A stretch of DNA of 52,011 nucleotides from Fibrobacteria bacterium (GTDB lineage Bacteria; Fibrobacterota; Fibrobacteria; UBA11236), in contig JBDSIO010000301.1 in NCBI GenBank assembly GCA_039917895.1, positions 1 to 52,011 on the forward strand. The letters run 5' to 3'. The notes under the pieces are model-generated. The model searched no databases, had not been told where the DNA came from, and worked only from the letters and a program-made list of their open reading frames with translations. Made by a program: the position numbers and the translations under genes. Positions 29,250 to 51,936 of this stretch are shown in pieces (the stretch's first letter is position 1; each line of letters starts with the position of its first letter).

Positions 29250-29258
29250 GAGGATCTC

Positions 29259-30401: not shown

Positions 30402-30410
30402 GGAGTCTCC

Positions 30411-31472: not shown

Positions 31473-31506
31473 AGGACGGCGCTTCCGCCGTACCAGGGAG
31501 GCGCTC

Positions 31507-33458: not shown

Positions 33459-33466
33459 GCCGTCCC

Positions 33467-35082: not shown

Positions 35083-36197
35083 AATATTGCCAGAAATGCG
35101 TCCTCCCCGATACCCGGCCCAACCTGATGCTGGACGCGGACGGCGTCTGCGACGCCTGCGGATCTTCCCTGGGGAAGCGAGACGTGGATTGGCCGGCGCG
35201 CGAGGCGGATTTCCGCGCCGTGGTCAACAACGCCAAGGCCAAGAGCAAGGGCTACGATTGCCTAATCCCGGTGAGCGGCGGCAAGGACAGCACCTGGCAG
35301 GTGGTCCGCTGCCTGGAGTACGGACTCAATCCCCTGGCCGTGACCTGGAGGACGCCCGCGCGCACGCCCATCGGCCAGTCCAACCTGGACAACCTCATCA
35401 GCCTGGGCGTCGACCACATCGATTACCAGGTCAATCCCAAGGTGGAACGGAAGTTCCTCATTCTCGCCTTGGAGAAGTACGGCAGCACCGCCGTTCCCAT
35501 GCATATGGCCCTGTTCAACATCCCCCTGCGCATCGCGGCCAAGTTCGACATCCCCTTGGTGGTCTACGGGGAGAATTCCGCTGCGGAGTACGGCGGCAAG
35601 GATGAAGCCCAAAAGGGATTCAAGCTCGACGGAAATTGGCTCCGCCGCTTCGGCGTCACCCACGGCACCACGGCGGCCGATTGGGTAGGGCCCGATTTGT
35701 CGGAAAAGGAAATGACGCCGTATTTCGGCCCCAACGATGCGGAGATGGAGGCAAAGGGCATCTCGGCCATTTTCCTGGGGCACTATTTCCCCTGGGATCC
35801 CCTGACCAGCCTGGAGTCGGCCAAGCGCCATGGGTTCAGGGTGCGCGAGGAAGGGCCCAAGACCGGGTATTACAACTTCGCCGACATCGATGACGATTTC
35901 ATCTCCATCCACCATTTCATCAAGTGGTACAAGTTCGGATTCACGCGCCTGTGGGATAACCTGTCCCTGGAAATCCGCAATGGCCGCATGACCCGGGACG
36001 AGGCGGTGAAGATCATCCGCGAACGCGGGGACGAGACGCCGCAAGAGGACATCGCCAAATTCTGCGCCTTCACGGCCATCACGGAAGCGCGGTTATTTGA
36101 AATCGCGGAGACGTTCCGCAATAAGGAAATCTGGAAGCGTGAAGGATCGAAATGGACAATGCCGGGATTCCTGATCCCGGACTGGAGGTGGAAGTGA
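35079..36197 (+). CDS. N-acetyl sugar amidotransferase (WbuX/PseA/WbpG family)
   Basis: MKYCQKC...CDAC, SGGKDS PP-loop, YGEN..EYGG, KFGFTR, EIRNGRMTRDEA. Confidence 0.92.
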   Translation: MKYCQKCVLPDTRPNLMLDADGVCDACGSSLGKRDVDWPAREADFRAVVNNAKAKSKGYDCLIPVSGGKDSTWQVVRCLEYGLNPLAVTWRTPARTPIGQSNLDNLISLGVDHIDYQVNPKVERKFLILALEKYGSTAVPMHMALFNIPLRIAAKFDIPLVVYGENSAAEYGGKDEAQKGFKLDGNWLRRFGVTHGTTAADWVGPDLSEKEMTPYFGPNDAEMEAKGISAIFLGHYFPWDPLTSLESAKRHGFRVREEGPKTGYYNFADIDDDFISIHHFIKWYKFGFTRLWDNLSLEIRNGRMTRDEAVKIIRERGDETPQEDIAKFCAFTAITEARLFEIAETFRNKEIWKREGSKWTMPGFLIPDWRWK

Positions 36198-36586
36198 AAT
36201 TCGAACCCAAACAGCCCCCGCGCACTTTCCAGGTGGGCAAGCTGACCGATATCGTGCTCAAGGATTGCGGCAAAATGGCCCTCGAACCGGGTGAACAGGT
36301 AACCTTCACAACGGAGCAGGGAGGGGAATACGACGTGCTGCGGAAGGAATGGGGGTTCTACGCCACACCTTCGCTGAATGCGCGTCTGCCCCAGTTCGGC
36401 CTGCGCGCCTGCCTGGTAAGCAGCCCTTCGGGGCGGTATTACATCTTCATGCTGGAAAAGGGCAAGGAAGATTCCTTTTGGGCTTATATGACTGCCGAGG
36501 AACACTCCGTGGTGAGCTGGCTGGACGATACCGAGGGAATGAAGGCCGTCGCGGCCCGCATTTCCGCAGGCGGACAGAAAGGCTGA
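36194..36586 (+). CDS. Hypothetical protein (130 aa)
   Basis: GTGA-coupled to the amidotransferase, with a GGAGG RBS. Sequence includes PPRTFQVG, DCG, EQVTF, EYDV.RK.WGFYATPSLN.RL. Confidence 0.8.
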   Translation: MKFEPKQPPRTFQVGKLTDIVLKDCGKMALEPGEQVTFTTEQGGEYDVLRKEWGFYATPSLNARLPQFGLRACLVSSPSGRYYIFMLEKGKEDSFWAYMTAEEHSVVSWLDDTEGMKAVAARISAGGQKG

Positions 36587-36595
36587 GTCAGGAGC

Positions 36596-38428
36596 ATGTG
36601 CGGCATCGCCGGTTACATCGGCCCCAAGGAGATTCCGGAGGATAGGGTTTCGGCCTGCCTGCGCGCCATGGACCACCGGGGTCCGGACGCCAATGGTCGC
36701 TATCGCCACGCGGCGCGCGGCGAGAACGTCCTGCTCCTGCACACCCGCCTGGCCATCATCGATCTCGATCCCCGATCCGGGCAGCCATTCCGGATGGGTG
36801 GCAAGGCCCTGGTCTTCAACGGCGAACTATACAACTACCTGGAGGTGAAGGCCGCCCTGGAAAAGCGCGGCCGCCGCTTCGCAACCGATGGCGACACCGA
36901 GGTCCTGCTCGCGGGAATCGATACCCTGGGTGATTCCGCCCTGGACCAATACGACGGGATGTGGGCATTCGCCCTATACGACGAGGCCGATGGCGGATTG
37001 AAACTCTGCCGCGATCGCTTTGGCGAGAAACCCTTATACCTGCATCGGGAAGGGACAGGACTCTATTTCGGTTCCGAGCCGAAGTTCATCCATGCCCTTT
37101 TGGGCCATAACCTTCCCATCGATTTGAATCACCTCCACCGCTACCTGGTCAACGGCTACCGCTCCCTGCACAAGGGAACCAACACCTATTTCCAGGGGTT
37201 GGAAGAACTCCCTTCAGGACGGCTGCTGGCCCGCCGGCCCGGAGGCGGAAAGACAGAGGATGCCTATTGGAATCCGGTTTCCCGGCAGGACCCGGCCATG
37301 GAATACCGCGATGCGGTCGAAGGCGCCCGCAAGGCCCTGATCGACGCAGTGAGCATCCGGCTACGCGCCGACGTGCCCATCGCATTCTGCATGAGCGGCG
37401 GCGTGGATTCCAATGCGCTCATATCCATCGCCAAGCGAGTGTTCGGCTACCAGGTGCACGGGTTCACCATCGCCAACAGCGACTCCCGATACGACGAGGG
37501 AGAAATGGTAGCGGCTTCCGTCAGGGATCTGGGCATCCGCCACACCTCCATACCCCTGGAGACCAAAGGATTCCTGGGCAAACTGAGGGGCCTGGTGGCC
37601 GCCCATGACGGGCCCGTCAGCACCATCACCTATTACGTTCACTGGCTCCTGATGAAAAGCGTGGCCGAGCACGGCTATAAGATTTCCCTCAGCGGGACTG
37701 GGGCGGACGAGCTCTTCACGGGCTATTTCGATCACCACCTGGCCTATCTCAAGGAGATTGAAGGCGACCCGGTACGGTATCCCGCCGCCCTGGAAGCCTG
37801 GCGCAAGCATATCCTGCCAGGGATCCAGAATCCCTACTTCCAAAACCCCCGGTTGTTCAGCGATAACCCCGCCTTCCGGGACCATATTTTCCAGGATTGC
37901 GACCTGTTCACCTCGCGCCTGGTCCGTCCCTGGACCGAAGCTTTCGCGGATCGAACCTGGAGCGGCGATTTGCTCCGCAACCGGATGCTGAACGAGCTTT
38001 TCCATGAGGTGGTGCCTCCCATCCTCCATGAGGACGATCTCAACGCCATGTGCTTCTCCATCGAAAACCGGTCTCCCTTCCTGTCCCGGCCGCTCTTCGA
38101 TTTCTGCCAAAGCATCCCCACCCGGCACCTGGTCCGGGACGGGTACGCCAAAGCCGTGCTCCGGGACGCCATGCGGGGAATCGCGCCGGACGCCATCCTG
38201 GGGAACCGGACCAAAGTGGGATTCAACGCGCCCGTCCTCTCCCTGCTGGATCCGGCGGATCCCGAAGTGAAGGATTGCCTGCTCGATCCGCGTAGCCCGG
38301 TATTCGAAATCGTTCGCCGCGAAGCGGTGGAGGAGTTGCTCGAAAGGCCCCACTTGCCGAATTCCGAAAGCAAATTCCTGTTCAACTTCCTCAACGCCAA
38401 GCTTTTCCTCGAAACCTTCGGGAGTTGA
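36596..38428 (+). CDS. asnB: AsnB-family glutamine-hydrolysing amidotransferase (sugar amidation)
   Basis: MCGIAG (Ntn Cys), HRGPD, FNGELYN, RDRFGEKPLY, SGGVDS, SGTGADE, ENRSPFL. Confidence 0.93.
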   Translation: MCGIAGYIGPKEIPEDRVSACLRAMDHRGPDANGRYRHAARGENVLLLHTRLAIIDLDPRSGQPFRMGGKALVFNGELYNYLEVKAALEKRGRRFATDGDTEVLLAGIDTLGDSALDQYDGMWAFALYDEADGGLKLCRDRFGEKPLYLHREGTGLYFGSEPKFIHALLGHNLPIDLNHLHRYLVNGYRSLHKGTNTYFQGLEELPSGRLLARRPGGGKTEDAYWNPVSRQDPAMEYRDAVEGARKALIDAVSIRLRADVPIAFCMSGGVDSNALISIAKRVFGYQVHGFTIANSDSRYDEGEMVAASVRDLGIRHTSIPLETKGFLGKLRGLVAAHDGPVSTITYYVHWLLMKSVAEHGYKISLSGTGADELFTGYFDHHLAYLKEIEGDPVRYPAALEAWRKHILPGIQNPYFQNPRLFSDNPAFRDHIFQDCDLFTSRLVRPWTEAFADRTWSGDLLRNRMLNELFHEVVPPILHEDDLNAMCFSIENRSPFLSRPLFDFCQSIPTRHLVRDGYAKAVLRDAMRGIAPDAILGNRTKVGFNAPVLSLLDPADPEVKDCLLDPRSPVFEIVRREAVEELLERPHLPNSESKFLFNFLNAKLFLETFGS

Positions 38429-38436
38429 GGACGGCG

Positions 38437-38465
38437 TTGCTTTCAAACGCCCGCTATCGTACCAT
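38437..38465 (+). promoter_or_regulatory. Putative internal promoter
   Basis: TTGCTT-N17-TACCAT in the 96-bp gap after asnB. Confidence 0.4.
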
Positions 38466-38524
38466 TTTCACGGAGCCGGCGGCCCCTGAACCGGGGAGCG
38501 CCCGCCCCGGAACAGGATCATCAG

Positions 38525-39271
38525 ATGTCCTACAGCAAGAATCCGCAGGAACTTTGGGAAGACTCCTTCCAGGAGCAGATTGCCCGCCAAGCGTATAACA
38601 CCGCACCCGTCGAAGCGCTCGTGCGCACGGCCGCTTATCATCTCCGCGACCGACGGCCGGAAGGGGATTACTCCGGACTGCATTGGCTGGAAATGGGATG
38701 CGGAACGGGGCCGAACCTGAAATGGCTGGCCCAAAAAGGCATTAAGGTCAGCGGCATCGACATCTCGCGCAACGCATTGGCCCTCGCGCGCAAGCAATTG
38801 GAAGACGGGGGCTTGGGAGCCGCAATCGTAGAAATGGTGGAAGGATCCGTGGCCCAGACTCCCTTCCCCGATTCTTCCTTTGACGGTATCTTCGAGGCCC
38901 TGGTCTTCCAGCATCTGACCAAGGAGGATCGCGTTAAGGCCTTCGCAGAGGTCCGCCGGCTGCTCAAGCCCGGCGGCGTCTTCATCGGAAACATGCTGGA
39001 CTCCGGACACACCATCTACCGCCAGCGCAAGGCCGAGGAGCTCGCGGACGATCCCGGAACCCTGCTTTTGCGCGACGGCGGATCCAATTTCCATCTCAAC
39101 AACCTCGGTCTCTGCCATTTCTACCGCCGCGAGGAATTGGAAAACCTTCTCCAGGGATTCGGCATCGTCGATCCTTCCATCATGACCTACTACCTCCCGC
39201 GGTTCGAAGCCAAAAAGCGCGGCTATGAGGAGTATCTGCAGAGCATGTGGACGGTCTATGCCGTCAAATGA
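38525..39271 (+). CDS. Class I SAM-dependent methyltransferase
   Basis: LEMGCGTG, GIDIS, PFPDSSFD, LLKPGG. Confidence 0.9.
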   Translation: MSYSKNPQELWEDSFQEQIARQAYNTAPVEALVRTAAYHLRDRRPEGDYSGLHWLEMGCGTGPNLKWLAQKGIKVSGIDISRNALALARKQLEDGGLGAAIVEMVEGSVAQTPFPDSSFDGIFEALVFQHLTKEDRVKAFAEVRRLLKPGGVFIGNMLDSGHTIYRQRKAEELADDPGTLLLRDGGSNFHLNNLGLCHFYRREELENLLQGFGIVDPSIMTYYLPRFEAKKRGYEEYLQSMWTVYAVK

Positions 39272-39953
39272 GGGATGGCTGGGCCATCCCGACGCGCGCA
39301 ACCCCTGGGCGAACGATCGTAAGCTCCTGGAACTGTACCGCCGGCGCTGCCGACGCGAAACCGAGGAGATGACGAGCGCGGCGCAGGCCGCCGAGATCAT
39401 CGCGGAAACCGCCCGGCCCGGGGAATCCCTGTTGGATGCCGGATGCGGAGGCGGCTATTACTACTGGTCCTTCCAATCCCGTGCTCCGGGCCTCGCCTAT
39501 CATGGCCTCGATCATACGCCCGCTATGGTGGAGCTGGCGACTGTGGAAATGGCCAAGGCGGGGCTTCCCGCCGAGCGATTCCAACTCGGGGACATCGCGG
39601 ACCTGGAAAGGGAATTCGATCATACCGTGTGCTTCCATGTGCTCGCCACCAGCCCGCATTACGCACACCTGCTCGATCGGCTTCTGGCCTGCACGCGCAA
39701 ACGCCTGGTACTGCGCGAGAGCCTGGCCGATACCGCGGGCACCACCTATCAGGCGGACGCCTATCTGGACGAGGACAAGCAGCACATCCAGGTCTACCAC
39801 AACACCTATGCGATGGAAGAGATGAAGGCGTTCATCGAAGCGCGGGGTTTCTCCGTCGTTAATGTGCCCGACAAGCGCAGCAAGAACGGCATGGAAATGG
39901 TCTGCGACGTGCCCCATTGGTGGAAGATCCTGGTCGCCGACCGGCGCAGGTAG
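39258..39953 (+). CDS. Class I SAM-dependent methyltransferase
   Basis: LLDAGCGGG, YHGLD, FDHTVCFHVL; GAGGAG upstream of ATG 39258. Confidence 0.88.
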   Translation: MPSNEGWLGHPDARNPWANDRKLLELYRRRCRRETEEMTSAAQAAEIIAETARPGESLLDAGCGGGYYYWSFQSRAPGLAYHGLDHTPAMVELATVEMAKAGLPAERFQLGDIADLEREFDHTVCFHVLATSPHYAHLLDRLLACTRKRLVLRESLADTAGTTYQADAYLDEDKQHIQVYHNTYAMEEMKAFIEARGFSVVNVPDKRSKNGMEMVCDVPHWWKILVADRRR

Positions 39954-39972
39954 GAAGCAACGAGGAGGATGC

Positions 39973-41835
39973 GTGTCTAGAATTGCCGGTGCGATAGCCG
40001 CGGAAACCGCCCACCCCGCTTTGTTGGCGGTGGCGGCTTCCCTTGAGACCCTCAAAGCCGCCGAGGATTGGGGCCTGCATGGTATGCCTGGAAGTATGGC
40101 CGCAAGCTCCGCAACGGCGCTACTCGGATGGACCGGGCATGGAACGGTTCAGTACGCTTCCCGGGACGGAGTCACGGCGGTCGTGGACGGCCGATTCTAC
40201 GGGCGTCCCGCGCTTGCTGAAAACGATTCTGAGGCCGCCCACCTGATCCGCCGCTTCCGCGAAATGGGATTCCCGGGCGCCCTGGCGGGGCTTAACGGCG
40301 ATTTTTCAGTCGCCCTCTTCGACTCCAAGAACCGCAAGCTCTGGCTGGCACGCGATCGGTTCGGAGTCAAGCCCCTATACTACGCGCGCGGCCGGGGATA
40401 CCTGGCCTTCGCATCCCGTCCTTCCGCCTTGTTCGGGATGCCCGGCATCGGCAAGGCCGTACGCAAAGAGTACGTGGCTCTGTATGCGGGTTGCCATTAC
40501 CGTTATTTCGATAACGACAACGCCAAGTCCCCGTATGCCGATGTCGCGCAATTGCCCGCCGCGCACTGGCTTTCGAGCGACGGAACCTCGGTGGAGACGG
40601 GCGTTTATTGGTCCATGACGGACGCCGAGGATATCGCCGGTTCCGATGCGGAGCTGGCGGAACGTTATCGCGATCTCATCCTGGACGCCGTGCGCATCCG
40701 TATATCAAAGGCCGAGAAGCCTGCCTTCACCTTGTCCGGCGGCATGGACTCCTCTTCCGTGCTCGCGAGCTCGGTGCGCCACTTGGGCCGGAAACAAATC
40801 GCTTTCTCCACCGTCTACGACGACAAGACTTACGACGAAAGCGAAGACATCGCTTCCATGCTCGACGGATACGTCGAAAAGTGGAATACCATCAAGATTG
40901 GGCATCCCGACGTATTCGGATTGGTGGAGCGCATGGTGGCCGTGCATGATGAACCGGTCTGTACCGCTACCTGGCTGTCGCATTTCCTGCTTTGCGAGGA
41001 AGTGTCGCGCCAGGGTTACCGTACCCTGTTCGGAGGACTGGGCGGGGACGAACTGAACGCGGGGGAATACGAACACTTCATCCCTAATTTCGCCGACCTG
41101 ATGCGAGCGGGGGACGAAAAGGCCTTGCGGCGCGAGGTGGATATGTGGGTGAAATACCACGACCACCCCGTCTTCAAAAAGGATTTCTCCGTAATGGAAG
41201 AGATGGTGCGGCGATCCACCGATGCCGCCGTACCGGGAAGGTGCCTGCCGGACCGGGTCCGCCTGGAACGTTACGCGGCCACTCTCGACGAGGGCTTCTT
41301 CGATTTGAAAAAATGGATTCCGGCCATGGATCATCCGTTCAAGAGCTACCTGAAGAACCGCACCTGGCAGGACATTTACCGGGAAACCATCCCACCTTGC
41401 CTGCGCGCGGAGGATCGCCAGACCACGGCCTTCGGGATCGAGAATTGCGTTCCGTTCTACGATCATCGCCTGGCTGAATTCATGTTCCGCGTTCCCAACC
41501 GCCAGAAAATCCGGGACGGACGCACCAAGCATCTGTTGCGCGAGGCCATGACCGGCGTGCTCCCCGAGGAGACCCGCACGCGCACGAAAAAGGTGGGCTG
41601 GAACGCGCCGGCGCACCAATGGTTCTCCGGCAAAGGCCTGGATCGGCTGAATGACCTGGTCCACAGCGCGGCATTCCGCGGTCGCGGGATCTACGACCTG
41701 AAAGAGGTGGACCGCCTAATCCGTGAGCACGAGGACATCGTCGTCCACGGAAGGAATATCGATAACCACATGATGTTCTTCTGGCAGTTGGTCAACCTGG
41801 AAACCTGGCTGCTGCGGCTGGATGCGGGCGCGTAG
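39973..41835 (+). CDS. AsnB-like ATP-dependent amide synthetase with degenerate glutaminase domain
   Basis: GAGGAGG RBS, then GTG giving MSRIAG (no Cys1, no HRGPD). Retains RDRFGVKPLYY, LSGGMDSS, GGLGGDE, PFYDHRL, K..LREAM. Confidence 0.88.
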   Translation: MSRIAGAIAAETAHPALLAVAASLETLKAAEDWGLHGMPGSMAASSATALLGWTGHGTVQYASRDGVTAVVDGRFYGRPALAENDSEAAHLIRRFREMGFPGALAGLNGDFSVALFDSKNRKLWLARDRFGVKPLYYARGRGYLAFASRPSALFGMPGIGKAVRKEYVALYAGCHYRYFDNDNAKSPYADVAQLPAAHWLSSDGTSVETGVYWSMTDAEDIAGSDAELAERYRDLILDAVRIRISKAEKPAFTLSGGMDSSSVLASSVRHLGRKQIAFSTVYDDKTYDESEDIASMLDGYVEKWNTIKIGHPDVFGLVERMVAVHDEPVCTATWLSHFLLCEEVSRQGYRTLFGGLGGDELNAGEYEHFIPNFADLMRAGDEKALRREVDMWVKYHDHPVFKKDFSVMEEMVRRSTDAAVPGRCLPDRVRLERYAATLDEGFFDLKKWIPAMDHPFKSYLKNRTWQDIYRETIPPCLRAEDRQTTAFGIENCVPFYDHRLAEFMFRVPNRQKIRDGRTKHLLREAMTGVLPEETRTRTKKVGWNAPAHQWFSGKGLDRLNDLVHSAAFRGRGIYDLKEVDRLIREHEDIVVHGRNIDNHMMFFWQLVNLETWLLRLDAGA

Positions 41836-41997
41836 CGGCGAAATCCGGGACGGGGTGGATTGTCTTTTTTGAGGCTACGCCGGGCGCATCCGGCGGGACC
41901 TGAAGTGTCGTTTCAAGTATTCCTCCAATTCTGGCTGGATGGCTTTCCGGCCAAGCGGGCCGGTGGCTAGGCGCGATCCGTCGCTCCGATTCTTTGC

Positions 41998-42027
41998 TTG
42001 CTCCCGGCTTTCCGGCCATAGTACCAT
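41998..42027 (+). promoter_or_regulatory. Putative promoter for the distal glycan genes
   Basis: TTGCTC-N18-TACCAT in the 234-bp gap. Confidence 0.4.
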
Positions 42028-42069
42028 CAAAGCGCGGATCCGCGGAAAACCTCGCGAGGGAGAACATCC

Positions 42070-44271
42070 ATGCAGCCTTTGATCACCATGATCAGGGTCA
42101 GGAATGACGGCATTCCGGCCCATTCGGACAGCCCGATCCATTCGCGATATCGCACGGAATTCGGACCCGATGCGCAAATCATTGAGATGCCCTTTCCCGC
42201 CTACCATACCGCCCGTGAATTCGCCCTTGATTTTCTCGCGGCGATCGCGATCGCTCGTGGGGCATGGATTCAAGTCGTCAGCGGCAATGTCGCGCCGCGT
42301 CCCGGGGACCTCTCCGGAATCCTCAGGCGACTCTCGGAATCGTCATCCTCCGGTGTGCAAGGCGCGGTGCTTGCCGCGCGCGTAAAATCGGAGGGAGGAT
42401 TGGAAACGGGATTGTTCGAGGATGGGTTCTCCTTGGACGCCATGGAAACCGCCAAATCCGCCCATCCCTGGCTTGCCGATCCTTCCGCGTTGATGCCTTT
42501 CTTCGTAATGAGCCGCTCGTTCGCCAGCTCGCTCGCCGAGGAGTTCGTGCGTACCCCGGATCCTTCCGCCGCGGTGATATGCTTCGTGGCAGCGTCCAAA
42601 GTGGAGACGCAGGTCCGTCAAGGGGCGTTCCTGGAGTTCCGCGAGGCAACGCTGATCGTGAATGCTCCCCCCGCGCCCAACGCAATCGCGGATCAAGCCA
42701 TGGCGGATTTCGAGGCGGACCGCAGCTTGGACGCCCTGAAGGCTCTCGACTATATCCGATTCACCTGGGGCGCGAGTCCATCGCTGGACCTGCATCGGTC
42801 CGTGCTTTCCGCGAAGCTGGAGCGCTTTTGGCTCGCAACCCATACCACGCGCCGGTTCCTGCAGAACAATAAAGGCAGCGATCCCGCCAAAAAGCTTTTC
42901 GAAGCCTTGAAAACCAGACGCTCCGAAGCCGCCTCGGGATATGCAGCGGCGGCGCCTCTGCTTGATTTGATCGATCCCGAAGGCGATTCAGGCGGGGAAA
43001 AGTGGTTGTTCGATTTCGTATCCGGCCAGCATGAACAAAGCGTCGGGTTGGTGATCGGGGATTATCCCTTGCGCGCGGCCTTCTGCATGCTGCTGGCGTG
43101 TCTGGGCACTCCGCGTAAGGTCGTGACACTTTCGCCTTTCCGATCCGCAGGGGGATGGAAAGGCAGGTCCGGGAGGGGCTATGATGTCTGGAAATCCATG
43201 GTCAGCCGCTTCGATTTGGAAGATCACGCGGAGGCTTCCGTATCCATCCGGGAAAGGCTGGCGGCCTGGGGCGACGCACCGCGGCCGGACATCCTGTTCG
43301 TTGCCTTGACGGAGGGAAACGATTACCGCGACGAATTGGCGGCCGCCTTCGCGTTGCTGAAGGAAGGCGGTCTGCTGGTGGCCCAAGGCGCGACCGCGGA
43401 GCATCCCCAGGCTTGGAAATTCTGGATCGAATCCGCCGAGCCCGCGCTCAGCGACAAAGGCCGCGAAGGCGCGCTGTCATGGGGCCGCAAGACCTCGGTT
43501 GCCCTGGGTGGGTCGCAACCGGTCATCACGCATGCGGAGTTGCTGCGCCGATGCAAGCTTCCGGAGCCGTTCGAACGCACCATGCTCTCGAATGAACGTT
43601 TCCGCAATGCTTTCAATTTGGCCCGCTTCGTAGACATCCGCAAGCTTCCGGGATCCATCGTAGAATGCGGGGTATGGAAAGGCGGTTGCTCCTCATCCAT
43701 GCTGCTCGCGATCCAACAGACCGGGAGCGACCGGGCGCTTTGGGCCTTCGATTCCTTTGAAGGCCTTCCCCGGCCTGGAGAGAAGGACGGGGCTTGGGCA
43801 TTCGAGAAGAGCGATGAGTGGGGCGGGAAGGGTTGTGAAGCGACCGAAGCGGATTTCCGCGAGACCTTGTTCAAGATCGCGGGTCTCAAGGACCGGAACG
43901 TGCATATCCGCAAAGGGTGGTTCAAGGACACGCTTCCCATTGCGAAGCATGAAATCGGTCCGATCAGCATCCTCAGGCTGGACGGCGACTGGTATGACTC
44001 GGTGTTGATCGGCCTGGAATGCCTCTATGACCTGGTGGTTCCCGGCGGATATATCCTGATCGACGATTATGGGTATTGGGAAGGCGCGCAAAAGGCCACG
44101 GATGAATTCCGCGCCCGTCTAGGAATCCAAAGCCCGCTTATTCTGACCGATCACGATGAGCGTTATTGGATCAAAATCGATGAAAAGCAGAGTTGGAAGC
44201 CCGTTCAGCCGGTGCGCGACATGGCTTTCGGGGTCGGGACTGAAAAGGGCGGATCGCCCTCGAACCATTGA
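42070..44271 (+). CDS. Multidomain protein with C-terminal TylF/MycF/NovP-family O-methyltransferase and a degenerate central methyltransferase-like domain
   Basis: PGSIVECGVWKGG, FDSFEGLP, KGWFKDTLP, LRLDGDWYDS, PGGYILIDDY..W.G. The central part has DILFV..LKEGGLLV. Confidence 0.88.
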   Translation: MQPLITMIRVRNDGIPAHSDSPIHSRYRTEFGPDAQIIEMPFPAYHTAREFALDFLAAIAIARGAWIQVVSGNVAPRPGDLSGILRRLSESSSSGVQGAVLAARVKSEGGLETGLFEDGFSLDAMETAKSAHPWLADPSALMPFFVMSRSFASSLAEEFVRTPDPSAAVICFVAASKVETQVRQGAFLEFREATLIVNAPPAPNAIADQAMADFEADRSLDALKALDYIRFTWGASPSLDLHRSVLSAKLERFWLATHTTRRFLQNNKGSDPAKKLFEALKTRRSEAASGYAAAAPLLDLIDPEGDSGGEKWLFDFVSGQHEQSVGLVIGDYPLRAAFCMLLACLGTPRKVVTLSPFRSAGGWKGRSGRGYDVWKSMVSRFDLEDHAEASVSIRERLAAWGDAPRPDILFVALTEGNDYRDELAAAFALLKEGGLLVAQGATAEHPQAWKFWIESAEPALSDKGREGALSWGRKTSVALGGSQPVITHAELLRRCKLPEPFERTMLSNERFRNAFNLARFVDIRKLPGSIVECGVWKGGCSSSMLLAIQQTGSDRALWAFDSFEGLPRPGEKDGAWAFEKSDEWGGKGCEATEADFRETLFKIAGLKDRNVHIRKGWFKDTLPIAKHEIGPISILRLDGDWYDSVLIGLECLYDLVVPGGYILIDDYGYWEGAQKATDEFRARLGIQSPLILTDHDERYWIKIDEKQSWKPVQPVRDMAFGVGTEKGGSPSNH

Positions 44272-44298: not shown

Positions 44299-47200
44299 AT
44301 GCCCGCTAAGAAGGTCCTGGTTTTCGCGCCCTACGGCGCTTGGATGGTCCATCATCAATTGGACGCGGTAATCGGGGCCGCATTGGCCCATCGCGGATGC
44401 GAGGTCGTAGCGGTGATTTGCGACGGCTTCCTCAAGAGTTGTTTCATAGCCGGAAAACCTCCTAACCCGGAAACCTGCCGCTCCTGCGCGTTGACGGGAG
44501 CAGGGGTCTTTGCGCGCATGGGCATCCGTACCGTGCAATTGCGCAGCCTGGTGACGGAAGCGGACCTTGAAACCGCCGCGGAATTTTCCCGTTCCGCCGA
44601 TTTGGGCAGGATGTCCGACGTCAGCTTCGATAAATATCCGCTGGGGAAATGGTGCCCGCCTTCCATGCAGTCTTATTTCTCGACCGGGGAATTCCCGCTC
44701 GACCAGGAATGGGCCGTAAAGGCGATCCGGGATCAGTTTTCCAACGGCGTATTGCTCGTTTTGGCCTTGAACCGGCTCATGGACGGATTCAAGCCCGATC
44801 AGGTTTTCTCATATAACAGCACCCATTTCTATTACCGGATCGCCTCCGAACTCGGAAAGGAACGCGGCCTGCCCGTATTGGTTCATGAGCGTGGGCATCT
44901 GAACGACAGTTTCACCCTGTTGGACGGTGAAAGCACCAATGCCAACCAGGGCCGGTTCAATGCCTTCAAAGCCTGGGAAGACGTGCCCCTGAACCGGGAA
45001 GAATGCGGCGAAGTGCAGACATATTTCCGGGAGCGCGAAGAAGGTAAAAACGGATTCTCCCGCTTCTATACTTTCGACAGCCAGGCCGAAGACGTCCGTA
45101 GGACCCTGCGCATCCCCGCGGGCGCACCGATCCTGGCGCTTTTCGGCTCCGGCGACCGGGAACTGGGAGCGTTCGAAACGGTGCAGCGTAAGACCTTCGC
45201 GGGGCAGGTGGAATGGATCCGGGCGACAGCCGAAATCTGCCGTAAACGAGGATGGTACCTGGTGATCCGGCACCACCCCAGCAACGTCATGAAGAACCAG
45301 GTGAATTTCCCTTTCATTTCCTCCTTGATGGAATTGAACAGGGAAATGCCGGATTGCGTCCGGGTGATCATGCCCCATGAACGCCTGACTTCTTATGCCA
45401 TTTTGTGGAATGCCGACGGCGCGGTGACCCATTTCAGTACCATGGGTTCGGAAACTCCGACCCGCGGGGTGTTGGGAGTATGCGTCGGCGACTCTTTGTA
45501 CCAACCTCTGGGCGTGGAATGGGCGGGTACCCGGGAGAATTATGAAAATGCCCTGGTGTCGAGCGTGGAGAAAACCAGGGATTTCGGATTGGCCCAGCTC
45601 CGGAAAGCCTATCGTGGCGCTCATTATGTCGTATTCAAACTGGGATACAAGTTCCGCAGCTTCGGAATCAGGGATGTGTATGCGCCGGATATCCGGGTCC
45701 GAAGCTTGTCGGAATTCGATCGCGGCAATGATCCCATCCTTGATCGGGTTTGCGACTACGTCATGGAAGGTTCGGCCTTGCTACCTGTTCCCGACGCCTC
45801 GGAAAGGAGCCGGAGTGAAGAGGAGGAACGGGTCTTCTTGGAAGTCGAGCTCCAGGGCCTGGTGGCCAAACGCCGGGCAATCGCATCGTCGAGGGCTATG
45901 GCCGAGGATGTGGCTGCTCCACTATTGACCGTGTTCGCCCTCCAGGGTTTTGAGGACGCGGGTATCCGCGATAAAAGCCTGAAAAGGAGCCGTGAAAAGG
46001 CCATCGAAAGGATCGATGTCGGGTTCGATCCCGAAGCTGAAATCGGTCGGATATTCGAATCCCTGGCAAGGGAGGCGGCCCGCGCCAAGGGTCGTTACGT
46101 GTACGTTTCGCTACCAGGTGTGGATGCGGATGAGTCCGTATTCGCGAATTCGATAGATTTTCTGGAAAACGAGGCCAACCGGGAAATTTCCGCCGTGACC
46201 TGGGGAGGCTGGCTGTCGGATGCCCAGGGCCGATTGAAACAGGAAATTTTCACGGATTCAAAGCCCATCGAATCCTTTGAGGAAGCAATTGAGTGCCTGG
46301 CCTCCCTGGATGATCCGATCAAGCACTTCGCCTTCGCGGTCATGCGAAAGGATTTCTTCACCGACCTGATCGGGTGGTTGGACGCGATGTCGGGATTCGG
46401 TCCCAGGGAAATCGCTGCTTCACTCTTCAATCTCCTTCGCGGAGCGAAATCCGGAGATACGATTATGCGCATGAAGGTGCCGATGATTTCGATATACCAA
46501 GTCCAGGAATCCCAAGCCGGAAAAGCGCCCGCGGATTCGGCAGTCGGTTCTCCCGCTCCATCCCTGAAGGCAGGTCTTGCCATGATGATGAACCCTTCTA
46601 CCCAAGCCAAGCTGGTTGACCCGATTTCGCAGCCGCCATCGGTCACCGGAGAATCAGCCGGGAACACGGGGAAGCCCCGCGATCCGGCAATCCTGGACGT
46701 CAGCCCGGACGTGCTGCGCGCCCGCCTGGAAACGGCGGCCTCGGCTTTCGCCGGCAACCCCGGTGATATAGAAGCCGGATTGGATTGCGCCGACGTCCTG
46801 GCTCGTTTGGGCGAAGGTGTCGGCGCGCGTCGGGTATTGATCGCCTTGCAAGCCCGGCACCCTTCGGATGCCCGGATCAAACCTCTGCTCGACAGCGTGG
46901 ATTGGAAATCCCGGCAAGGCCTGGCCGGCGTTTTCGAGTGGAACCTGCGCGGCGAAGGATATCGCCGGCTGTTCGGAAAGCGGAGCGTGGATTCCTACGC
47001 CGACGCCCAGCCTTATGTCGAATCGGTACCGGGTTGGATGCTGGAGGGGCAGGAGAAATACCTTTTCGAAAAGGTAAAATCCCTGCCCGACGGCGCCGTC
47101 ATCCTGGAAATGGGCGCCGACCGCGGGAGGTCAACCAGCGCGATGGCCCTCGCCTGCAAAGGCACCTCGAAACGCATCATCTCCATAGATACCTTCGCGG

Positions 47201-49401
47201 GGAACGACGGCATCATGGGCAAGACCTACGATTTTTACCATGAGTGGCGCGGAAACCTGGAGCGGTTGAGCGTAGGGGATCGGGCCACCGGAATCCAGGG
47301 TTACACTTTTGACGTGCTGCCGACATGGAACACCATGGTGGACTTCGCCTTCATCGACGCCTCCCACGAATATATCGATGTCTTGAACGATCTCAAACTC
47401 ATCTATCCGTTCGTCAAAAAAGGGGGATGGATCGCCTTCCATGACGTGGAGCCCGGATGGCCGGGTCCTTGGCGCGTTTGGCTGGAATATGGAATTCCCC
47501 TGCTCACGAACCATGAGGTGGTCCATACGCTCGCATCGGGGCGGAAAACCGAAGCCTACGAGTTCGGTAAACAACCCGAGGCGATCACGCGCTTCTCCTT
47601 CGCGCGCAGCTGGGTCGAGGACCTGCGCAGGAGCGGGGACCCCTCGGCAGTGCCGCTGCTCCAAGCATTTACCGCCAGCCTGGATTTTTCCCGCCCGGGT
47701 CCCGAAAGCCGGGGCAAGGCCATCGAGGCGGAAAGGACCATCTCCGGCATGGCTCCCCACCTGAAGCAGACGCTCAATTGCATGATCGGGAAAGACGCCT
47801 ACTTCGACGGCTACCTGCACTATTGGTATGCGTTGACGCTAGAAGCCGCAGGCCTGCAGGAGGAGGCGCGTCGGCATTTTTCCATCGCGTCCCGGGTGTC
47901 TTACGCGGTACCGATGGAACAGCTACGCCGTCCCGAAGGCGAGTCAATGTCGGCGGCGGATCCTATCGCGGAAATATTCCGGAATTGGATGAAGGCATCC
48001 GACACGGTTATCCAAATCGGGAGCGGTGACGGATCCCTGCTCAGCCGACTGCCTGGCCGCTTCAAACTGGGCTTGGAACCGGATGACCAATTGCGGAAAC
48101 ATGCCGCGATTTCGGCCGGTATCGATTCGTTCAATTCGGCATCGGAACTGCCGGAAGAATTCGCCGATATCGCCATCGGCCATGCGGCGCTCGGATTAGT
48201 CCAAGAGCCATTGGCATTGCTCAAATCCTTACGCGGAAAACTAAAGCCTGGTGGAAAAGCGGTTTTCACGACCCGGTCTCCCGATGCCGAGGCGCCGGGC
48301 GTAGCCGGCAAGGACCTTTACGCATGGACCTCCGCCGCCTTTGCGAACTTTTTCGCCGCGGCCGGTTTTGCAGTTAAAAAGGTGGGTCTGGAGGAAATTC
48401 CCGGCGCCGGAAAATTCATATTTCTGGTCGCGGATGCCACCCCATCGGCAGATTCCTCCTCCAGCAAGGCGGATTGGGCTCCGGTTCGGACTTCCGCTCC
48501 CTTGAACGCGCGGGATTCATCCGTGAAGGGGGTAACCAAAACGGACCCGCGGGATATTCCCGTGGCATTGGTCGCGTATCGGCGTCCGGAGCACACCCGT
48601 CAAGTCATAGAATCCCTGGAGCGCCAGGGTGTCCGGAATCTTTATATTTTCTGCGACGCGGCCAAAGGGAACGGCGACGAGGCGGATGTGCGTGCGACGC
48701 GAAAGCTGGTCGAAGGAATCTCCTGGATTAAACCTGAATTGCACTTCGTAGAGAATAACCGGGGACTCGCCAGGTCCGTGATGGCGGCGGCCGACCATGT
48801 CCTGTCCCGTCACGAAACCGTCGTGCTACTCGAAGACGATTGCGTCCCGCAGCGTCATTTTTTCGGATTCATGGCCAACGCCCTGGATAAATACCGGGAC
48901 GATGAAAGCGTTTACGGGGTTTCAGGATACACGGTTCCCCTGCAGCCCGATCTTTTGCGGCGCTACCCGCAGGACGTGTATTTCTGCCCTAGGATAAGCA
49001 GTTGGGGATGGGCGACCTGGAAAAGGGCGTGGAAGCAGTTGGATAGGGATCTGGTATCCGTTTGCCGGAAGGTCCTGGATGCACGAATAGATCTCGATCA
49101 GGGCGGCGACGACATCAAGTTTTCCATTGAAGGGATGCTGCAAGGGCATGTCAAGGACGTTTGGACCCTTCCCTGGGTCCTGAGCGTCTACCTTAACCGT
49201 GGCTGTTTCGTCTATCCCACGGTGTCCCATATCGACAATATCGGGATGGATGGATCCGGAGTCCATTGCGGCAAGACAGACCGGTATGTCACGGCCTTGG
49301 CCGAGGCTCCTGCGCACCGCTTTCCCGAACGGGTTTTCTACGATCCCGAGGTGATGGCCCGCTTCTGCAGCTTCTACGATCTCGCCTTGCAGCGGACCTG
49401 A
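44299..49401 (+). CDS. 1700-aa multidomain glycan enzyme: capsule-biosynthesis (KpsS/KpsC-like GT-B) domain, degenerate GT-A-like region, TPR-like helices, two methyltransferase domains, C-terminal GT-A glycosyltransferase
   Basis: HERG, IRHHP, FSTMGSE; ILEMGADRGRST..SIDTF..FIDASHEY..KKGGWIAFHD; IQIGSGDG..LKPGG; PVALVAYRRPEH, LLEDDC, SSWGWATW, NIGMDGSGVH. Confidence 0.85.
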   Translation: MPAKKVLVFAPYGAWMVHHQLDAVIGAALAHRGCEVVAVICDGFLKSCFIAGKPPNPETCRSCALTGAGVFARMGIRTVQLRSLVTEADLETAAEFSRSADLGRMSDVSFDKYPLGKWCPPSMQSYFSTGEFPLDQEWAVKAIRDQFSNGVLLVLALNRLMDGFKPDQVFSYNSTHFYYRIASELGKERGLPVLVHERGHLNDSFTLLDGESTNANQGRFNAFKAWEDVPLNREECGEVQTYFREREEGKNGFSRFYTFDSQAEDVRRTLRIPAGAPILALFGSGDRELGAFETVQRKTFAGQVEWIRATAEICRKRGWYLVIRHHPSNVMKNQVNFPFISSLMELNREMPDCVRVIMPHERLTSYAILWNADGAVTHFSTMGSETPTRGVLGVCVGDSLYQPLGVEWAGTRENYENALVSSVEKTRDFGLAQLRKAYRGAHYVVFKLGYKFRSFGIRDVYAPDIRVRSLSEFDRGNDPILDRVCDYVMEGSALLPVPDASERSRSEEEERVFLEVELQGLVAKRRAIASSRAMAEDVAAPLLTVFALQGFEDAGIRDKSLKRSREKAIERIDVGFDPEAEIGRIFESLAREAARAKGRYVYVSLPGVDADESVFANSIDFLENEANREISAVTWGGWLSDAQGRLKQEIFTDSKPIESFEEAIECLASLDDPIKHFAFAVMRKDFFTDLIGWLDAMSGFGPREIAASLFNLLRGAKSGDTIMRMKVPMISIYQVQESQAGKAPADSAVGSPAPSLKAGLAMMMNPSTQAKLVDPISQPPSVTGESAGNTGKPRDPAILDVSPDVLRARLETAASAFAGNPGDIEAGLDCADVLARLGEGVGARRVLIALQARHPSDARIKPLLDSVDWKSRQGLAGVFEWNLRGEGYRRLFGKRSVDSYADAQPYVESVPGWMLEGQEKYLFEKVKSLPDGAVILEMGADRGRSTSAMALACKGTSKRIISIDTFAGNDGIMGKTYDFYHEWRGNLERLSVGDRATGIQGYTFDVLPTWNTMVDFAFIDASHEYIDVLNDLKLIYPFVKKGGWIAFHDVEPGWPGPWRVWLEYGIPLLTNHEVVHTLASGRKTEAYEFGKQPEAITRFSFARSWVEDLRRSGDPSAVPLLQAFTASLDFSRPGPESRGKAIEAERTISGMAPHLKQTLNCMIGKDAYFDGYLHYWYALTLEAAGLQEEARRHFSIASRVSYAVPMEQLRRPEGESMSAADPIAEIFRNWMKASDTVIQIGSGDGSLLSRLPGRFKLGLEPDDQLRKHAAISAGIDSFNSASELPEEFADIAIGHAALGLVQEPLALLKSLRGKLKPGGKAVFTTRSPDAEAPGVAGKDLYAWTSAAFANFFAAAGFAVKKVGLEEIPGAGKFIFLVADATPSADSSSSKADWAPVRTSAPLNARDSSVKGVTKTDPRDIPVALVAYRRPEHTRQVIESLERQGVRNLYIFCDAAKGNGDEADVRATRKLVEGISWIKPELHFVENNRGLARSVMAAADHVLSRHETVVLLEDDCVPQRHFFGFMANALDKYRDDESVYGVSGYTVPLQPDLLRRYPQDVYFCPRISSWGWATWKRAWKQLDRDLVSVCRKVLDARIDLDQGGDDIKFSIEGMLQGHVKDVWTLPWVLSVYLNRGCFVYPTVSHIDNIGMDGSGVHCGKTDRYVTALAEAPAHRFPERVFYDPEVMARFCSFYDLALQRT

Positions 49402-49405: not shown

Positions 49406-50338
49406 ATGGGTCAATCCACCGCAACCGGCGCAGCTTCCGATCCCATCGTCTGCTATTGCTTCAATCGTACCAGCAAGCAATTGAGAGACGCGCATGCTCG
49501 GTTGGGAAGCCTTCCCGAAGTCCAGAAGGAAACCCGGGCCGGAACCAAGTGCGGTGGTTGCCGGATGATCCTGGAGTCCATGTTCGATGAGAATCCCGAT
49601 GAAATCCTCAGCCTCGGTCAAGGTGGCCGCAACGTTTGCGTCCGTCCCGGTTCGACCCTGATGAAGGGTTTCGTCGCCGCGGATCACCGGCTGGATACGG
49701 TGGTCTATTCCTCCAACGGAGTGCCCCCCCAGTTCGATGGGCAGGATATGTCCCTGCCCTTGGAGTACATGCTGCTGGACAGTTCGGGAAACCCCGTGCT
49801 CCATCGCACCGCCCGGCTCGAATCCAACGAAACCTTTTGCTTCGACACGCGGAAGGAGAATCTGCCAAGGCCGCTATACGGTATGTTCCTGCTCAGGTTG
49901 GGGCGCGCAAATTACGGCGCGGGGCGCTTCAATACCGTCTGGACCAACGGCGTTTCCGCCTGCACGACCCATGAAATAAACGATTCGGGAAGGCCATGCT
50001 CGGTGCTTCCGGTTCCCGTGGATGACGCTTTCCTGCGGGGGCCCAACTCCATCTTTCTCGCTATGCAGAACCCCCACGATTGGCCGATCCGTTTGCGGTT
50101 GGAAGCCGTTGACGCGAACGGGGCGGTCCTGGCCTGCCTGCATCGGGAGTTGCCTCCCCGTAACAGCCAATGGCTGAACGTCCTCAAGGAGGTATTCCGC
50201 CCCCTGTTGGCGGAGCATGCCGGAGCGAGGCTCACGTTGCGCATCCAGAGCGAACCCCGGCGCATGGACATGGCCGCAACCCTGTATTTTTTCCTGCATA
50301 ACCTGGAAACGGACATCTGGAGCGCCAACCACCTATGA
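49406..50338 (+). CDS. BFD-like [2Fe-2S]-binding domain fused to an unknown beta-rich domain
   Basis: IVCYC-x30-CGGC (AGTKCGGC), the BFD/NifU/NirB-type pattern. The remainder is unassigned. Confidence 0.85.
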   Translation: MGQSTATGAASDPIVCYCFNRTSKQLRDAHARLGSLPEVQKETRAGTKCGGCRMILESMFDENPDEILSLGQGGRNVCVRPGSTLMKGFVAADHRLDTVVYSSNGVPPQFDGQDMSLPLEYMLLDSSGNPVLHRTARLESNETFCFDTRKENLPRPLYGMFLLRLGRANYGAGRFNTVWTNGVSACTTHEINDSGRPCSVLPVPVDDAFLRGPNSIFLAMQNPHDWPIRLRLEAVDANGAVLACLHRELPPRNSQWLNVLKEVFRPLLAEHAGARLTLRIQSEPRRMDMAATLYFFLHNLETDIWSANHL

Positions 50339-51093
50339 AAGACCCTACGGATGGTTCCTCAGTATTGATGCAAGCGGGATATCTTCCCGATACCTCGGAA
50401 TACACCACTACGATACGGCATTTTCCCGGAACTAACGCCCATCTTCCCTGGGGCACCCATGGCCGTTTCAGCTTCGAAGTGGAGGTCTTCGAGAACGGCG
50501 TGAAGATAGGGTCGGATCGGACTCCGGAATGCGATGAATCCGGAAGCCTGGAAATGGATATCGGGGCCTTGGCGGAGCGATGCGGACGGCCGGTCAACGG
50601 CATGTATGTGGTAAAATACCGCCATGCCAAGGAGATTCCCGTGGAGGTCTATGCTTTCCACGTACACAAGGCCTCCGGCACCTACGTTTCCTGCAACATC
50701 ATCCCCTTCATCGGTGATCAGCTATATCCGACGGTGCACACCGATCAAATGGAGAATACCCTCTTCTGGCCAGGGCTGATTCCGGAGACCGACAGCGAGT
50801 CGCATTTGGTGGTCGTGAACCCCTACGACGAGAATATGGGGTTCCAAGTCCACGCCATGGGCGCGGCAGGAGTCCTGGCACGAACGGCTGTGCTTCATAT
50901 CAAGCCTTTCCGGGCCGCGACCTTCCCTTTACCAGAACTGTTTTTCGAGTGCGAAGCTGAGATTAGGGCCGCGAAAGGGAAGGTTTCCTTCTGCGTTTCC
51001 TCACAGTATAAGTTGATCGCCTACATGATGTTCAAAAGCCGCGGCCAGGTGATGTCCATGATGGATCACCTGCATAATTTCTGCCTGGCCTGA
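50335..51093 (+). CDS. Hypothetical protein, apparent paralog of the C-terminal part of 49406..50338
   Basis: ATGA overlap. Shared motifs: RPVNGMYVV/RPLYGMFLL, VVNP/MQNP and terminal MDHL/ANHL. Confidence 0.8.
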   Translation: MKDPTDGSSVLMQAGYLPDTSEYTTTIRHFPGTNAHLPWGTHGRFSFEVEVFENGVKIGSDRTPECDESGSLEMDIGALAERCGRPVNGMYVVKYRHAKEIPVEVYAFHVHKASGTYVSCNIIPFIGDQLYPTVHTDQMENTLFWPGLIPETDSESHLVVVNPYDENMGFQVHAMGAAGVLARTAVLHIKPFRAATFPLPELFFECEAEIRAAKGKVSFCVSSQYKLIAYMMFKSRGQVMSMMDHLHNFCLA

Positions 51094-51099: not shown

Positions 51100-51936
51100 C
51101 TATTTGAAACGGACCAGCGAGGTCCAGCGATAGCTGGAGGCATCTTGCCAATAGGGTTCCAGGCCCGCATGCCGCGCCGGATCGTAAGCGCCGAAAACGG
51201 AGGGCGTAGTGATATAGGACGTCTCCATCGTTACCGCCTCTCGATAATCGAAGACCGGGGGAAACTTATGGTAGGAAGAGATCGCCTCCAACAAATACTC
51301 GCGTTCCGTTGGGAAGCGTAAAGCGCCGGTTTCCGATTTTTGGTTGAGGATCGCGGCGAGGGAAATATGCCGGTTGCCGGAATATTCCGGGTAGTTATCA
51401 TCCAGGATGACGGTCTTGATCCCCATTTCCCGGCATAGCTTAAGTCTGGCGAAAACGTCCTGGTGATCATCGAAAAACACCAGGGTATCGACGAGGTAGT
51501 CTTTGATGTGGGACCAATCCAGGGTGGTGAAATCGTTAGTCGTGTACTCCGCCCTTTTGGTGCGGTACTGGATTCCCTCGCTGGCGGGATCGATCGCGAA
51601 TATGACGGCTTCGGGAAGCGCATTCTCGATAAGCCAGGTGGATTGCCCTTTCCAAACGCCGCTTTCGACCACCAGTTTCGGATCCACTTTTTTCAGAATA
51701 TGCCACAGGGTGAACAGTCCGCTGGACTTCATTCCTCCTTCATTTTGCCGTATAGGCCTGGTTTCGTAGAATGGCAGGAATCCTTTCAGTTGCGCGGCGA
51801 TTTCCTGGAGGTCCCAGATCGGGGTCCCGATCTGCTCGATTGGCGCCGGCGGCGTCGGCGTAACCGCCGGATTCCTGTCTTGGTAGGGGGCTGCTGCCGA
51901 AGCGGGCTTAGAAGTCTGGGGAATGGAAATGCGCAT
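51100..51936 (-). CDS. Uncharacterised methyltransferase-like protein
   Basis: VVESGVWKGQSTW, FAIDP, VFFDDH and ILDDNY follow the class I (Methyltransf_24/TylF-like) motif order. Confidence 0.7.
   Translation of the reverse strand: MRISIPQTSKPASAAAPYQDRNPAVTPTPPAPIEQIGTPIWDLQEIAAQLKGFLPFYETRPIRQNEGGMKSSGLFTLWHILKKVDPKLVVESGVWKGQSTWLIENALPEAVIFAIDPASEGIQYRTKRAEYTTNDFTTLDWSHIKDYLVDTLVFFDDHQDVFARLKLCREMGIKTVILDDNYPEYSGNRHISLAAILNQKSETGALRFPTEREYLLEAISSYHKFPPVFDYREAVTMETSYITTPSVFGAYDPARHAGLEPYWQDASSYRWTSLVRFK

Follow-up and report, generated by a model that had tools for sequence, protein, structure and literature searches.

The question raised by this locus is what two short, overlapping genes are doing at the end of an operon for nonulosonic acids (NulO), one of them with an iron-sulfur domain at its head. 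The locus lies on contig JBDSIO010000301.1 (assembly GCA_039917895.1) of a Fibrobacteria bacterium, and the whole stretch analysed, 52,011 nucleotides (nt), is called the window below. Genes A and B form the end of a plus-strand operon starting at ~27.4 kb and had been singled out as a candidate new system in a first-pass annotation made from the sequence letters. We found them to be a coupled pair from a superfamily with no earlier description among the sources searched. Our leading interpretation, to which we give a probability of about 0.4, is that A and B together would be an iron-sulfur metalloprotein that tailors the nonulosonate by oxidation. The features of the pair, with lengths in amino acids (aa), are as follows.

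49406-50338, plus strand: gene A, 310 aa; an N-terminal BFD-type [2Fe-2S] domain and a two-part, beta-sandwich-like region of ~225 aa that ends N308-H309-L310
49445-49588, plus strand: BFD-like [2Fe-2S] domain of A (Pfam PF04324), aa 14-61, with C16, C18, C49 and C52
49667-50335, plus strand: B-homologous region of A, aa 88-310, with T188-H189-E190, R167, R174, R196 and the N222-P motif
50335-50338, plus strand: start/stop overlap ATGA, the ATG of B lying over the TGA of A
50335-51093, plus strand: gene B, 252 aa; His-rich, two-part and beta-sandwich-like, ending D244-H245-L-H247-x-x-C250

A coupled pair of paralogues

The spacer between the stop codon of the preceding megaprotein gene (49399-49401) and the ATG of A (49406) is 4 nt. 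The cysteines of A are arranged as C16-Y-C18, 30 residues, then C49-G-G-C52, and Fer2_BFD (PF04324) matched aa 14-61 at E 1.8e-11, with 44.6 bits against a Pfam cut-off of 26. Fer2_BFD was also found on the A-type proteins of loci L002, L004, L005, L020, L021 and L023. The open reading frames (ORFs) and Pfam together confirmed what the first-pass annotation had read at this point, namely the 4-nt gap, CYC-x30-CGGC, ~240 aa of uncharacterised sequence and the ATGA overlap, and its BFD [2Fe-2S] fusion was upheld by a match above the curated cut-off.

The sole PDB sequence relatives of A were the Bfd chains 6e6r and 4e6k, aligned with the same stretch at E ~0.003. Outside this stretch (~250 aa) A gave no match above cut-off in Pfam, NCBIfam or the PDB sequences, nor did any part of B, in agreement with the earlier view that neither belongs to a characterised family. 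No signal peptide was apparent by eye at the N-terminus of A or B. JGI labels relatives of A "bacterioferritin-associated ferredoxin", a name that describes the domain only. Like Bfd, A matches PF04324 at aa 14-61 and carries the four cysteines. Unlike A, Bfd proper stands alone, with 56-73 residues in the matched PDB chains, whereas the domain in A is fused to ~250 aa and sits in a sugar operon. Given the 310-aa length, the 250-aa extra region and the lack of any ferritin-family match among the window ORFs scanned, the identification of A as Bfd proper was rejected.

Direct BLASTP of A against B was weak (22% over 116 aa, E 0.066), and the first family profiles matched at 30% probability (E 5.5e-4). 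When the alignments were enlarged to 26 A-type and 54 B-type sequences, the B-type ones reaching down to 23% identity, hhalign paired A 88-307 with B 15-242 over 200 columns at 93.3% probability (E 2.7e-7). The profile of a wider superfamily alignment, made of 14 distant ~250-aa relatives of B, matched B at E 1.1e-27 over 230 columns and the C-terminal part of A at E 8e-6. P0100, a 347-aa A-like protein on a metagenome contig (L038) with C-x-C...C-x2-C, S-T-H-E and a Q-H-L end, matched the A profile at 97.8% (E 8.6e-13, 292 columns) and the B-like profile at 97.2% (E 3.1e-11, 192 columns). Because the enlarged profiles match, the 14-relative profile matches both proteins and P0100 bridges them, the non-BFD region of A and B are whole-length paralogues by profile comparison. 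They belong to a superfamily, not described before, whose members have ~250 aa in two parts and look all-beta.

The motif pairs that had been quoted for the resemblance of A and B were all present and were mutually aligned by BLASTP and hhalign, and the resemblance itself exceeds chance. The view of A and B as translationally coupled paralogues likewise stood, on the ATGA overlap, the profile match and the P0100 bridge. The proposed internal duplication within each protein did not fare as well. The C-half of A matched the C-half of B at 95.9% (E 6.4e-9) and the superfamily C-half at 94.3% (E 9.5e-8), and comparisons of N-half with C-half profiles gave E 0.002-0.4 at 0.1-16% probability. The segments aligned in the latter resemble equivalent strand-hairpin patterns; these statistics are too weak for a duplication, which is suggestive at best.

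The two families are small. Among 5.8 billion protein clusters we found 22 proteins of the A-family and 25 of the B-family, and the B-family profile searched against 1.84 billion (1.84e9) representatives retrieved 49 proteins at E<=1e-3, 33 of them at E<=1e-10. A word-index protein search with the alignment of the 14 distant B relatives returned six proteins. No match to B or to the distant relative P0087 was obtained by tblastn in 72,556 plasmids, and P0087 alone as query found no relative among the genome contigs. B was present in 4 of the 296 genomes of the window's phylum, in 6/124 genomes of the phylum of a Bdellovibrionota metagenome-assembled genome (MAG) and in 1/401 genomes sampled from the phylum of a Verrucomicrobiota MAG.

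As far as could be assessed, the pair is always kept together. A lay directly upstream of B on the same strand in 10/10 assessable loci (the window, L001/L009, L002, L003/L008, L004, L005, L020, L021, L022 and L023), and nine A matches and nine B matches fell on equally long contigs. The genes overlap by 22 nt in eight loci and by 4 nt in the window, and are separated by a 9-nt gap in L005. The distant pair in L038 has the same order, A-like then B-like, with a 22-nt overlap. No fused A-B form was seen among the homologues found. Open frames of 633 and 565 aa in L008 and L009 were considered as A-B gene fusions and rejected as alternative frames, the genes there being separate and overlapping; in these GC-rich genomes alternative frames of 550-630 codons stay open across A and B, so that stop-to-stop lengths mimic fusions.

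The ATG of B in the window sits 18 nt downstream of the start used by its relatives (region 50317-50338), those with the 22-nt overlap being L002, L008, L009, L020-L023 and L038. Upstream of this ATG the codons for E-R-Q-P-P persist, as in the relatives. Their conservation as the sign of a CTG start for B was considered and rejected; it is probably due to the overlap of these codons with the invariant W-x-A-N-H-L end of A.

Conserved residues and a fold lead

As shown by the 54 B-type sequences, D244, H245, H247, N162 and Y106 of B are kept in 54/54, H111, C220, Q224 and W145 in 53/54, Q171 in 52/54, E140 and N141 in 51/54, H97 and H135 in 48/54, and H109 in 46/54, against a mean column identity of 44% in the family. 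In A, three of the cluster cysteines (C16, C18, C52) are found without exception in the 26 sequences, and at least 90% have C49. Invariant in the same 26 sequences are N104, R167, N169, R174, N176 and W179, and further T188-H189-E190, G195-R196, N222, W256, Y294, F296 and N308-H309. The terminal His residues put forward in the first-pass annotation are thus invariant, both in B (D244/H245/H247) and in A (H189, H309). Distant A-like P0100 retains the THE and tail motifs, as STHE and QHL. The Arg/Asn-rich set is a feature of the A-family. Little else than G...N-P and a C-terminal [D/N]-H is invariant in the 14 distant relatives, and we take these two as the superfamily hallmark.

For the fold, the model of B contained in the ESM Atlas (pTM 0.79) had structural neighbours at template-modeling (TM) scores of 0.67-0.75. 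They were unnamed clusters of ~250-350 aa, one with Fer2_BFD in 45% of its members, and, at TM 0.67-0.71, clusters bearing DUF5719, including amidase fusions from Chloroflexota. Atlas feature scores for B were 0.88 for DUF5719 and 0.87 for ASRT, both below the 0.9 level; one Atlas row for B reached the bar for naming DUF5719. A residues 70-310 and B share their top unnamed Atlas cluster, and Fer2_BFD is present on 45% of the members of an Atlas cluster of 342 aa and on 67% of those of one of 304 aa.

These neighbours lead to the ASRAH superfamily of De Souza, Iyer and Aravind (2009), which according to the main text of that paper (PMC2739507) takes in ASRT, tetrads fused to amidases in Chloroflexi, and dyads of actinobacteria with a link to a glycosyltransferase. 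The same text describes tetramer-forming, predicted sugar-binding beta-sandwiches, whose intracellular forms are proposed as sensors; their hallmark is a Trp where strand 1 begins and a near-invariant Asn where strand 2 ends (W7 and N32, 25 apart, in TM1070). As the amidase fusions and the taxa match, DUF5719 would be the ASRAH dyad family. The likeness of A/B to ASRAH, as far as that main text goes, lies in the Atlas neighbours and the linkage to sugar and glycosyltransferase genes, and may extend to a dyad layout, the W...N of B and, for ASRT, an intracellular location. In the C-half of B, W145 and N162 are 17 residues apart, a loose fit to W...N; A has invariant N104 and N222 but no matching Trp. 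The main text of PMC2739507 has no ferredoxin, 2Fe-2S or BFD and makes no mention of the [D/N]H tail or the His-rich set of A/B.

At the sequence level A/B differ from ASRAH in having no significant match. Neither A nor B matched ASRT (PF07100) or DUF5719 (PF18986) in Pfam at E<=1. One of the 14 distant relatives had a DUF5719 match at E 0.37, and the DUF5719-bearing P0094 had a match to the B profile (E 9.3e-4) that fell elsewhere, in a different region. PDB profile searches with two alignments, one of them that of the 14 distant relatives, returned zero and two chance-level matches (E 0.26 and 0.67) and no ASRT chain. On the Atlas model, an ASRAH-like fold of the A/B body is put here as likely but unproven.

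The fold lead also supports a different account of the pair. A and B may be a non-catalytic module that binds a sugar or nucleotide sugar, in which ASRAH-like dyads form a pseudo-tetramer of four beta-sandwiches that holds the nonulosonate or the growing glycan and regulates or escorts the megaprotein transferase, with the [2Fe-2S] cluster as a sensor of redox state, O2 or iron. The Atlas model and scores, the tetramers, predicted sugar binding, glycosyltransferase linkage and proposed sensors of ASRAH and the W145...N162 resemblance are all in its favour, as is the confinement of the pair to genomes with mega-N, the N-terminal domain of the megaprotein described below. Against it are the missing sequence-level matches, the weakness and different location of those seen in the distant relatives and P0094, the presence of five to seven conserved His plus Asp/Glu, which is many for a sugar pocket, and the repeated fusion to an electron-carrier domain, which would be unusual. 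We regard this account as the main alternative, possible but less likely than not.

Mega-N and the nonulosonic-acid islands

The genes that precede the pair, and the one that converges on it, are the following.

27379-44271, plus strand: upstream part of the operon, nonulosonic-acid genes by Pfam and NCBIfam matches
27562-28059, in the plus-strand operon: cytidylyltransferase, CTP_transf_3
32187-33458, plus strand: NeuB ORF, 423 aa, NeuB domain from residue 119
44299-49401, plus strand: megaprotein, 1700 aa; mega-N of ~700 aa, TPR, Methyltransf_24, Methyltransf_23 and a weak GT2-like C-terminus (Pfam)
44299-46398, plus strand: mega-N domain, ~700 aa, Cys4, resembling type B glycosyltransferases (GT-B)
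51100-51936, minus strand: convergent 278-aa protein with no Pfam family, conserved in the islands of relatives

The upstream genes encode the cytidylyltransferase, a GFO/IDH/MocA oxidoreductase, a DegT aminotransferase, a dehydratase/epimerase, formyltransferases, NeuB and a deacetylase, and further a WbuX amidotransferase, two AsnB-like proteins, several methyltransferases, a TylF O-methyltransferase and the megaprotein. The NeuB ORF begins 265 nt inside the preceding formyltransferase ORF (31783-32451, plus strand), and the true NeuB start is probably further downstream than the ORF start listed.

Mega-N had no Pfam or PDB match. C41, C48, C60 and C63 were invariant in 11/11 sequences, and R-H-H-P and G-x-E stretches were also conserved, which presumably recall sialyltransferase-type GT-B motifs. 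A homologue of ~1000 aa lies directly 3' of B in three Bdellovibrionota loci, and the two tested gave E 2e-87 (L004:10754-13771) and E 3e-73 (L022:10636-13770). In Verrucomicrobiota, L005:4942-8031 encodes a homologue of 1030 aa with 38% identity (E 1e-156). A strong mega-N homologue was present in 11/11 B-positive genomes, compared with background rates of 6/296 and 13/124 genomes, a co-occurrence that overstates independence because the genomes are kin. Mega-N was seen only in nonulosonic-acid loci, in three phyla. From these sequence features we propose mega-N as an undescribed, GT-B-looking family and a candidate nonulosonate transferase; it would be the transferase of the island.

The nine mega-N genomes without A/B again have mega-N in NeuB/cytidylyltransferase loci, with other tailoring enzymes beside it: methyltransferases, a fused B12-radical-SAM (L026) and a PhyH dioxygenase with a carbamoyltransferase (L027). 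The L026 protein (8922-13532, 1536 aa) is a mega-N fused to a B12-binding radical-SAM domain. A/B are accessory to the mega-N islands for nonulosonic-acid glycosylation and not a constant part of them.

A partner of this kind brings up the idea that A/B have no active site of their own and are a dedicated ferredoxin or cluster-handling unit, serving either mega-N at its Cys4 site or a partner of the radical-SAM or dioxygenase type. The four invariant mega-N cysteines, the presence of mega-N in every B-positive genome and the position of the L038 distant pair, 2.3 kb from a B12-radical-SAM gene, would fit. Its difficulties are that the Cys4 site is retained in the nine genomes without A/B, that the window glycan operon has no radical-SAM gene, the one found (8635-9984) being outside it, and that such a role does not account for a conserved beta-sandwich of ~480 aa in which His, Arg and Asn residues are invariant. 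We hold a pure electron-supply role to be quite improbable.

NulO genes (NeuB, CTP_transf_3, DegT and amidotransferases) flank the pair in the window, L004, L005, L020 and L022. The recurrence anticipated by the first-pass annotation was seen on neighbourhood analysis, in that the adjacent pair recurs in NeuB/CMP-sugar loci of three phyla with the terminal His invariant. Judged on sequence, the outcomes which that annotation had named as telling against it did not appear: no characterised family took in the two proteins, the His residues were not lost, and homologues were linked both to glycan loci and to each other.

The gene order in L005 is FliW, flagellin, flagellin, mega-N, methyltransferase, A, B, carbamoyltransferase, ..., NeuB, and the window genome has six flagellin genes. 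Maf transferases carry PF01973, and no PF01973 domain was found in the window genome, which is 92.7% complete. Compared with the Maf/FlmG flagellin islands, the present ones are alike in the NulO operon with amidotransferases and methyltransferases and in the position of the L005 mega-N after FliW and two flagellins; they are unlike in the absence of PF01973 from the window genome and in a putative transferase of an undescribed, Cys4, GT-B-like family. The protein glycosylated by the island would be flagellin or a different one, and the nonulosonic acid attached to it would be heavily modified.

The distant pair of L038 has neighbours for GNAT, a B12-radical-SAM protein, a methyltransferase, an HAD hydrolase and an RmlD-like reductase, and no mega-N; the 745-aa protein upstream was tried as a mega-N homologue and rejected (E 0.56). 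A small protein of 148-165 aa follows B in two Bdellovibrionota loci, L020 (10599-11045) and L021 (9146-9643). The similarity between the copies is weak (E 2e-6), as is that of one of them to the N-terminal extension of the L004 mega-N homologue (E 8e-4), and the small protein may be a third component of the module, split or fused.

The 278-aa protein that converges on B has 49% identity to L003:13566-14399 (E 2e-92) and 48% to L002:1455-2210, which lies beside a megaprotein homologue (E 5e-82); L002:469-1425 proved not to be related. Its sole family match was a weak NCBIfam methyltransferase (E 0.0011). Just upstream of the glycan operon is an 888-aa Kelch protein with at least five repeats (23489-26155, plus strand), and a PUA-SAM methyltransferase gene lies between the two.

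Possible chemistry of the pair and its meaning

The BFD domains of Bfd, NirB and NifU are electron carriers. BFD is N-terminal on the A-type proteins and C-terminal on the distant single-chain members P0082 and P0090. Because the domain is attached in two ways, known BFDs carry electrons and the His/Asp/Glu residues of B are conserved, a redox metalloprotein that tailors the nonulosonate seems to us the best reading. In this scheme A and B would form a hetero-oligomer, and the Arg/Asn-rich beta-sandwich of A (R167, R174, R196, N104, N169, N176) would bind the anionic nonulosonate or its cytidine monophosphate (CMP) form. The [2Fe-2S] cluster of A would relay single electrons to a His-ligated metal centre supplied mostly by B (H97, H109, H111, H135, E140, D244, H245, H247) and completed by H189/E190 and H309 of A. 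At this centre an O2-dependent oxidation, for example hydroxylation, of the sugar or its N-acyl group might take place before or after transfer by the megaprotein. The steps from the hetero-oligomer onward are inferred. The window genome has three COX1 genes and can therefore respire oxygen, which makes O2 chemistry feasible. Also in favour of tailoring, the place beside mega-N is taken in other islands by enzymes that tailor.

The same residues could be read without electron transfer. Conserved His, Asp and Glu with two H-x-H motifs would also suit a hydrolytic site, and the operon has many group-transfer enzymes whose products could need trimming; A/B might then act on the nonulosonate or on its acyl groups, for instance as a Zn or Mn hydrolase, lyase or epimerase, with BFD structural or regulatory. 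We judge this improbable, since the cluster cysteines are kept across phyla, three of them without exception, and BFD was independently fused at either end of superfamily members, which suggests that the cluster is functional and not decorative. A cupredoxin, multicopper oxidase or PHM-like protein, considered for B on account of the two H-x-H motifs, found no match in Pfam, NCBIfam or the PDB and was absent among the Atlas neighbours.

CMP-N-acetylneuraminate hydroxylase (CMAH) is an enzyme with a [2Fe-2S] cluster and non-haem iron that hydroxylates CMP-sialic acid, its cluster being of Rieske type with Cys2His2 ligation. A Rieske-type or CMAH-like hydroxylase was rejected for A/B in view of the all-Cys motif and the lack of a Rieske or other catalytic-domain Pfam match. 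The analogy with CMAH is a functional one, an Fe-S cluster beside a His-ligated metal site (predicted in A/B) in a nonulosonate pathway; A differs in having a Cys4 BFD and an unrelated beta-sandwich-like body, and homology was neither found nor is claimed. A legionaminic acid that is possibly N-glycolyl, of no known genetic basis, is reported from Tannerella forsythia (PMC5378307). A bolder form of the oxidative proposal would make the A/B pairs a new class of [2Fe-2S]-dependent metalloenzyme on an ASRAH-like scaffold, with a metal site from the C-terminal His tails of both subunits, acting as the bacterial functional counterpart of CMP-sialic acid hydroxylase and oxidising a legionaminic- or pseudaminic-type sugar for flagellin. 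We consider this form unlikely.

Several observations weigh against oxidative tailoring by A and B or weaken the first-pass annotation. The rich His set with its two H-x-H motifs is confined to the B family, within which C250 (35/54) and H173 (32/54) are variable. Invariance in the 14 distant relatives is limited to P-G, N, G and D-H, and a single His, that of the [D/N]H tail, persists throughout the superfamily. The fold lead points to ASRAH/DUF5719, predicted sugar-binding domains with no described catalysis. A/B are absent from 9 of 19 mega-N genomes in the Fibrobacterota-type and Bdellovibrionota-type sets, which makes the pair optional. No reductase partner is conserved beside the pair, a DAO flavoprotein occurring in one locus (L004). 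The neighbours of the pair in L021 (genome G385) are lipoate-ligase, 2-oxoacid dehydrogenase and globin genes, and mega-N and NeuB of this genome are on a different contig. Finally, the earlier suggestion that the pair supplies a missing step of the pathway is not needed, the cytidylyltransferase being present in the operon.

What was known already is the BFD domain, and for the beta-sandwich body a divergent form of the ASRAH dyad is possible. We found no prior description of the A/B superfamily, of its obligate pairing, of the Fe-S fusion or of the association, in nonulosonic-acid islands, with a transferase-like Cys4 family. The literature search did not find "DUF5719", yielded one relevant paper for "ASRAH" among those listed, and among the matches listed had none that joined BFD terms with NulO or flagellin glycosylation.

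Nonulosonic acids shape flagellar assembly and surface recognition, and to our knowledge the enzymes that decorate them in bacteria are largely unknown. Two undescribed families are defined here, the A/B superfamily with its [D/N]H tail and the Cys4 mega-N, a marker of such islands in three phyla or more. Should the fold lead prove right, A/B would be the first link of ASRAH-type sugar-binding domains with an electron-carrier domain. With its function inferred, the pair offers a concrete two-gene target in which a redox tailoring step, or redox control of glycosylation, may be sought.

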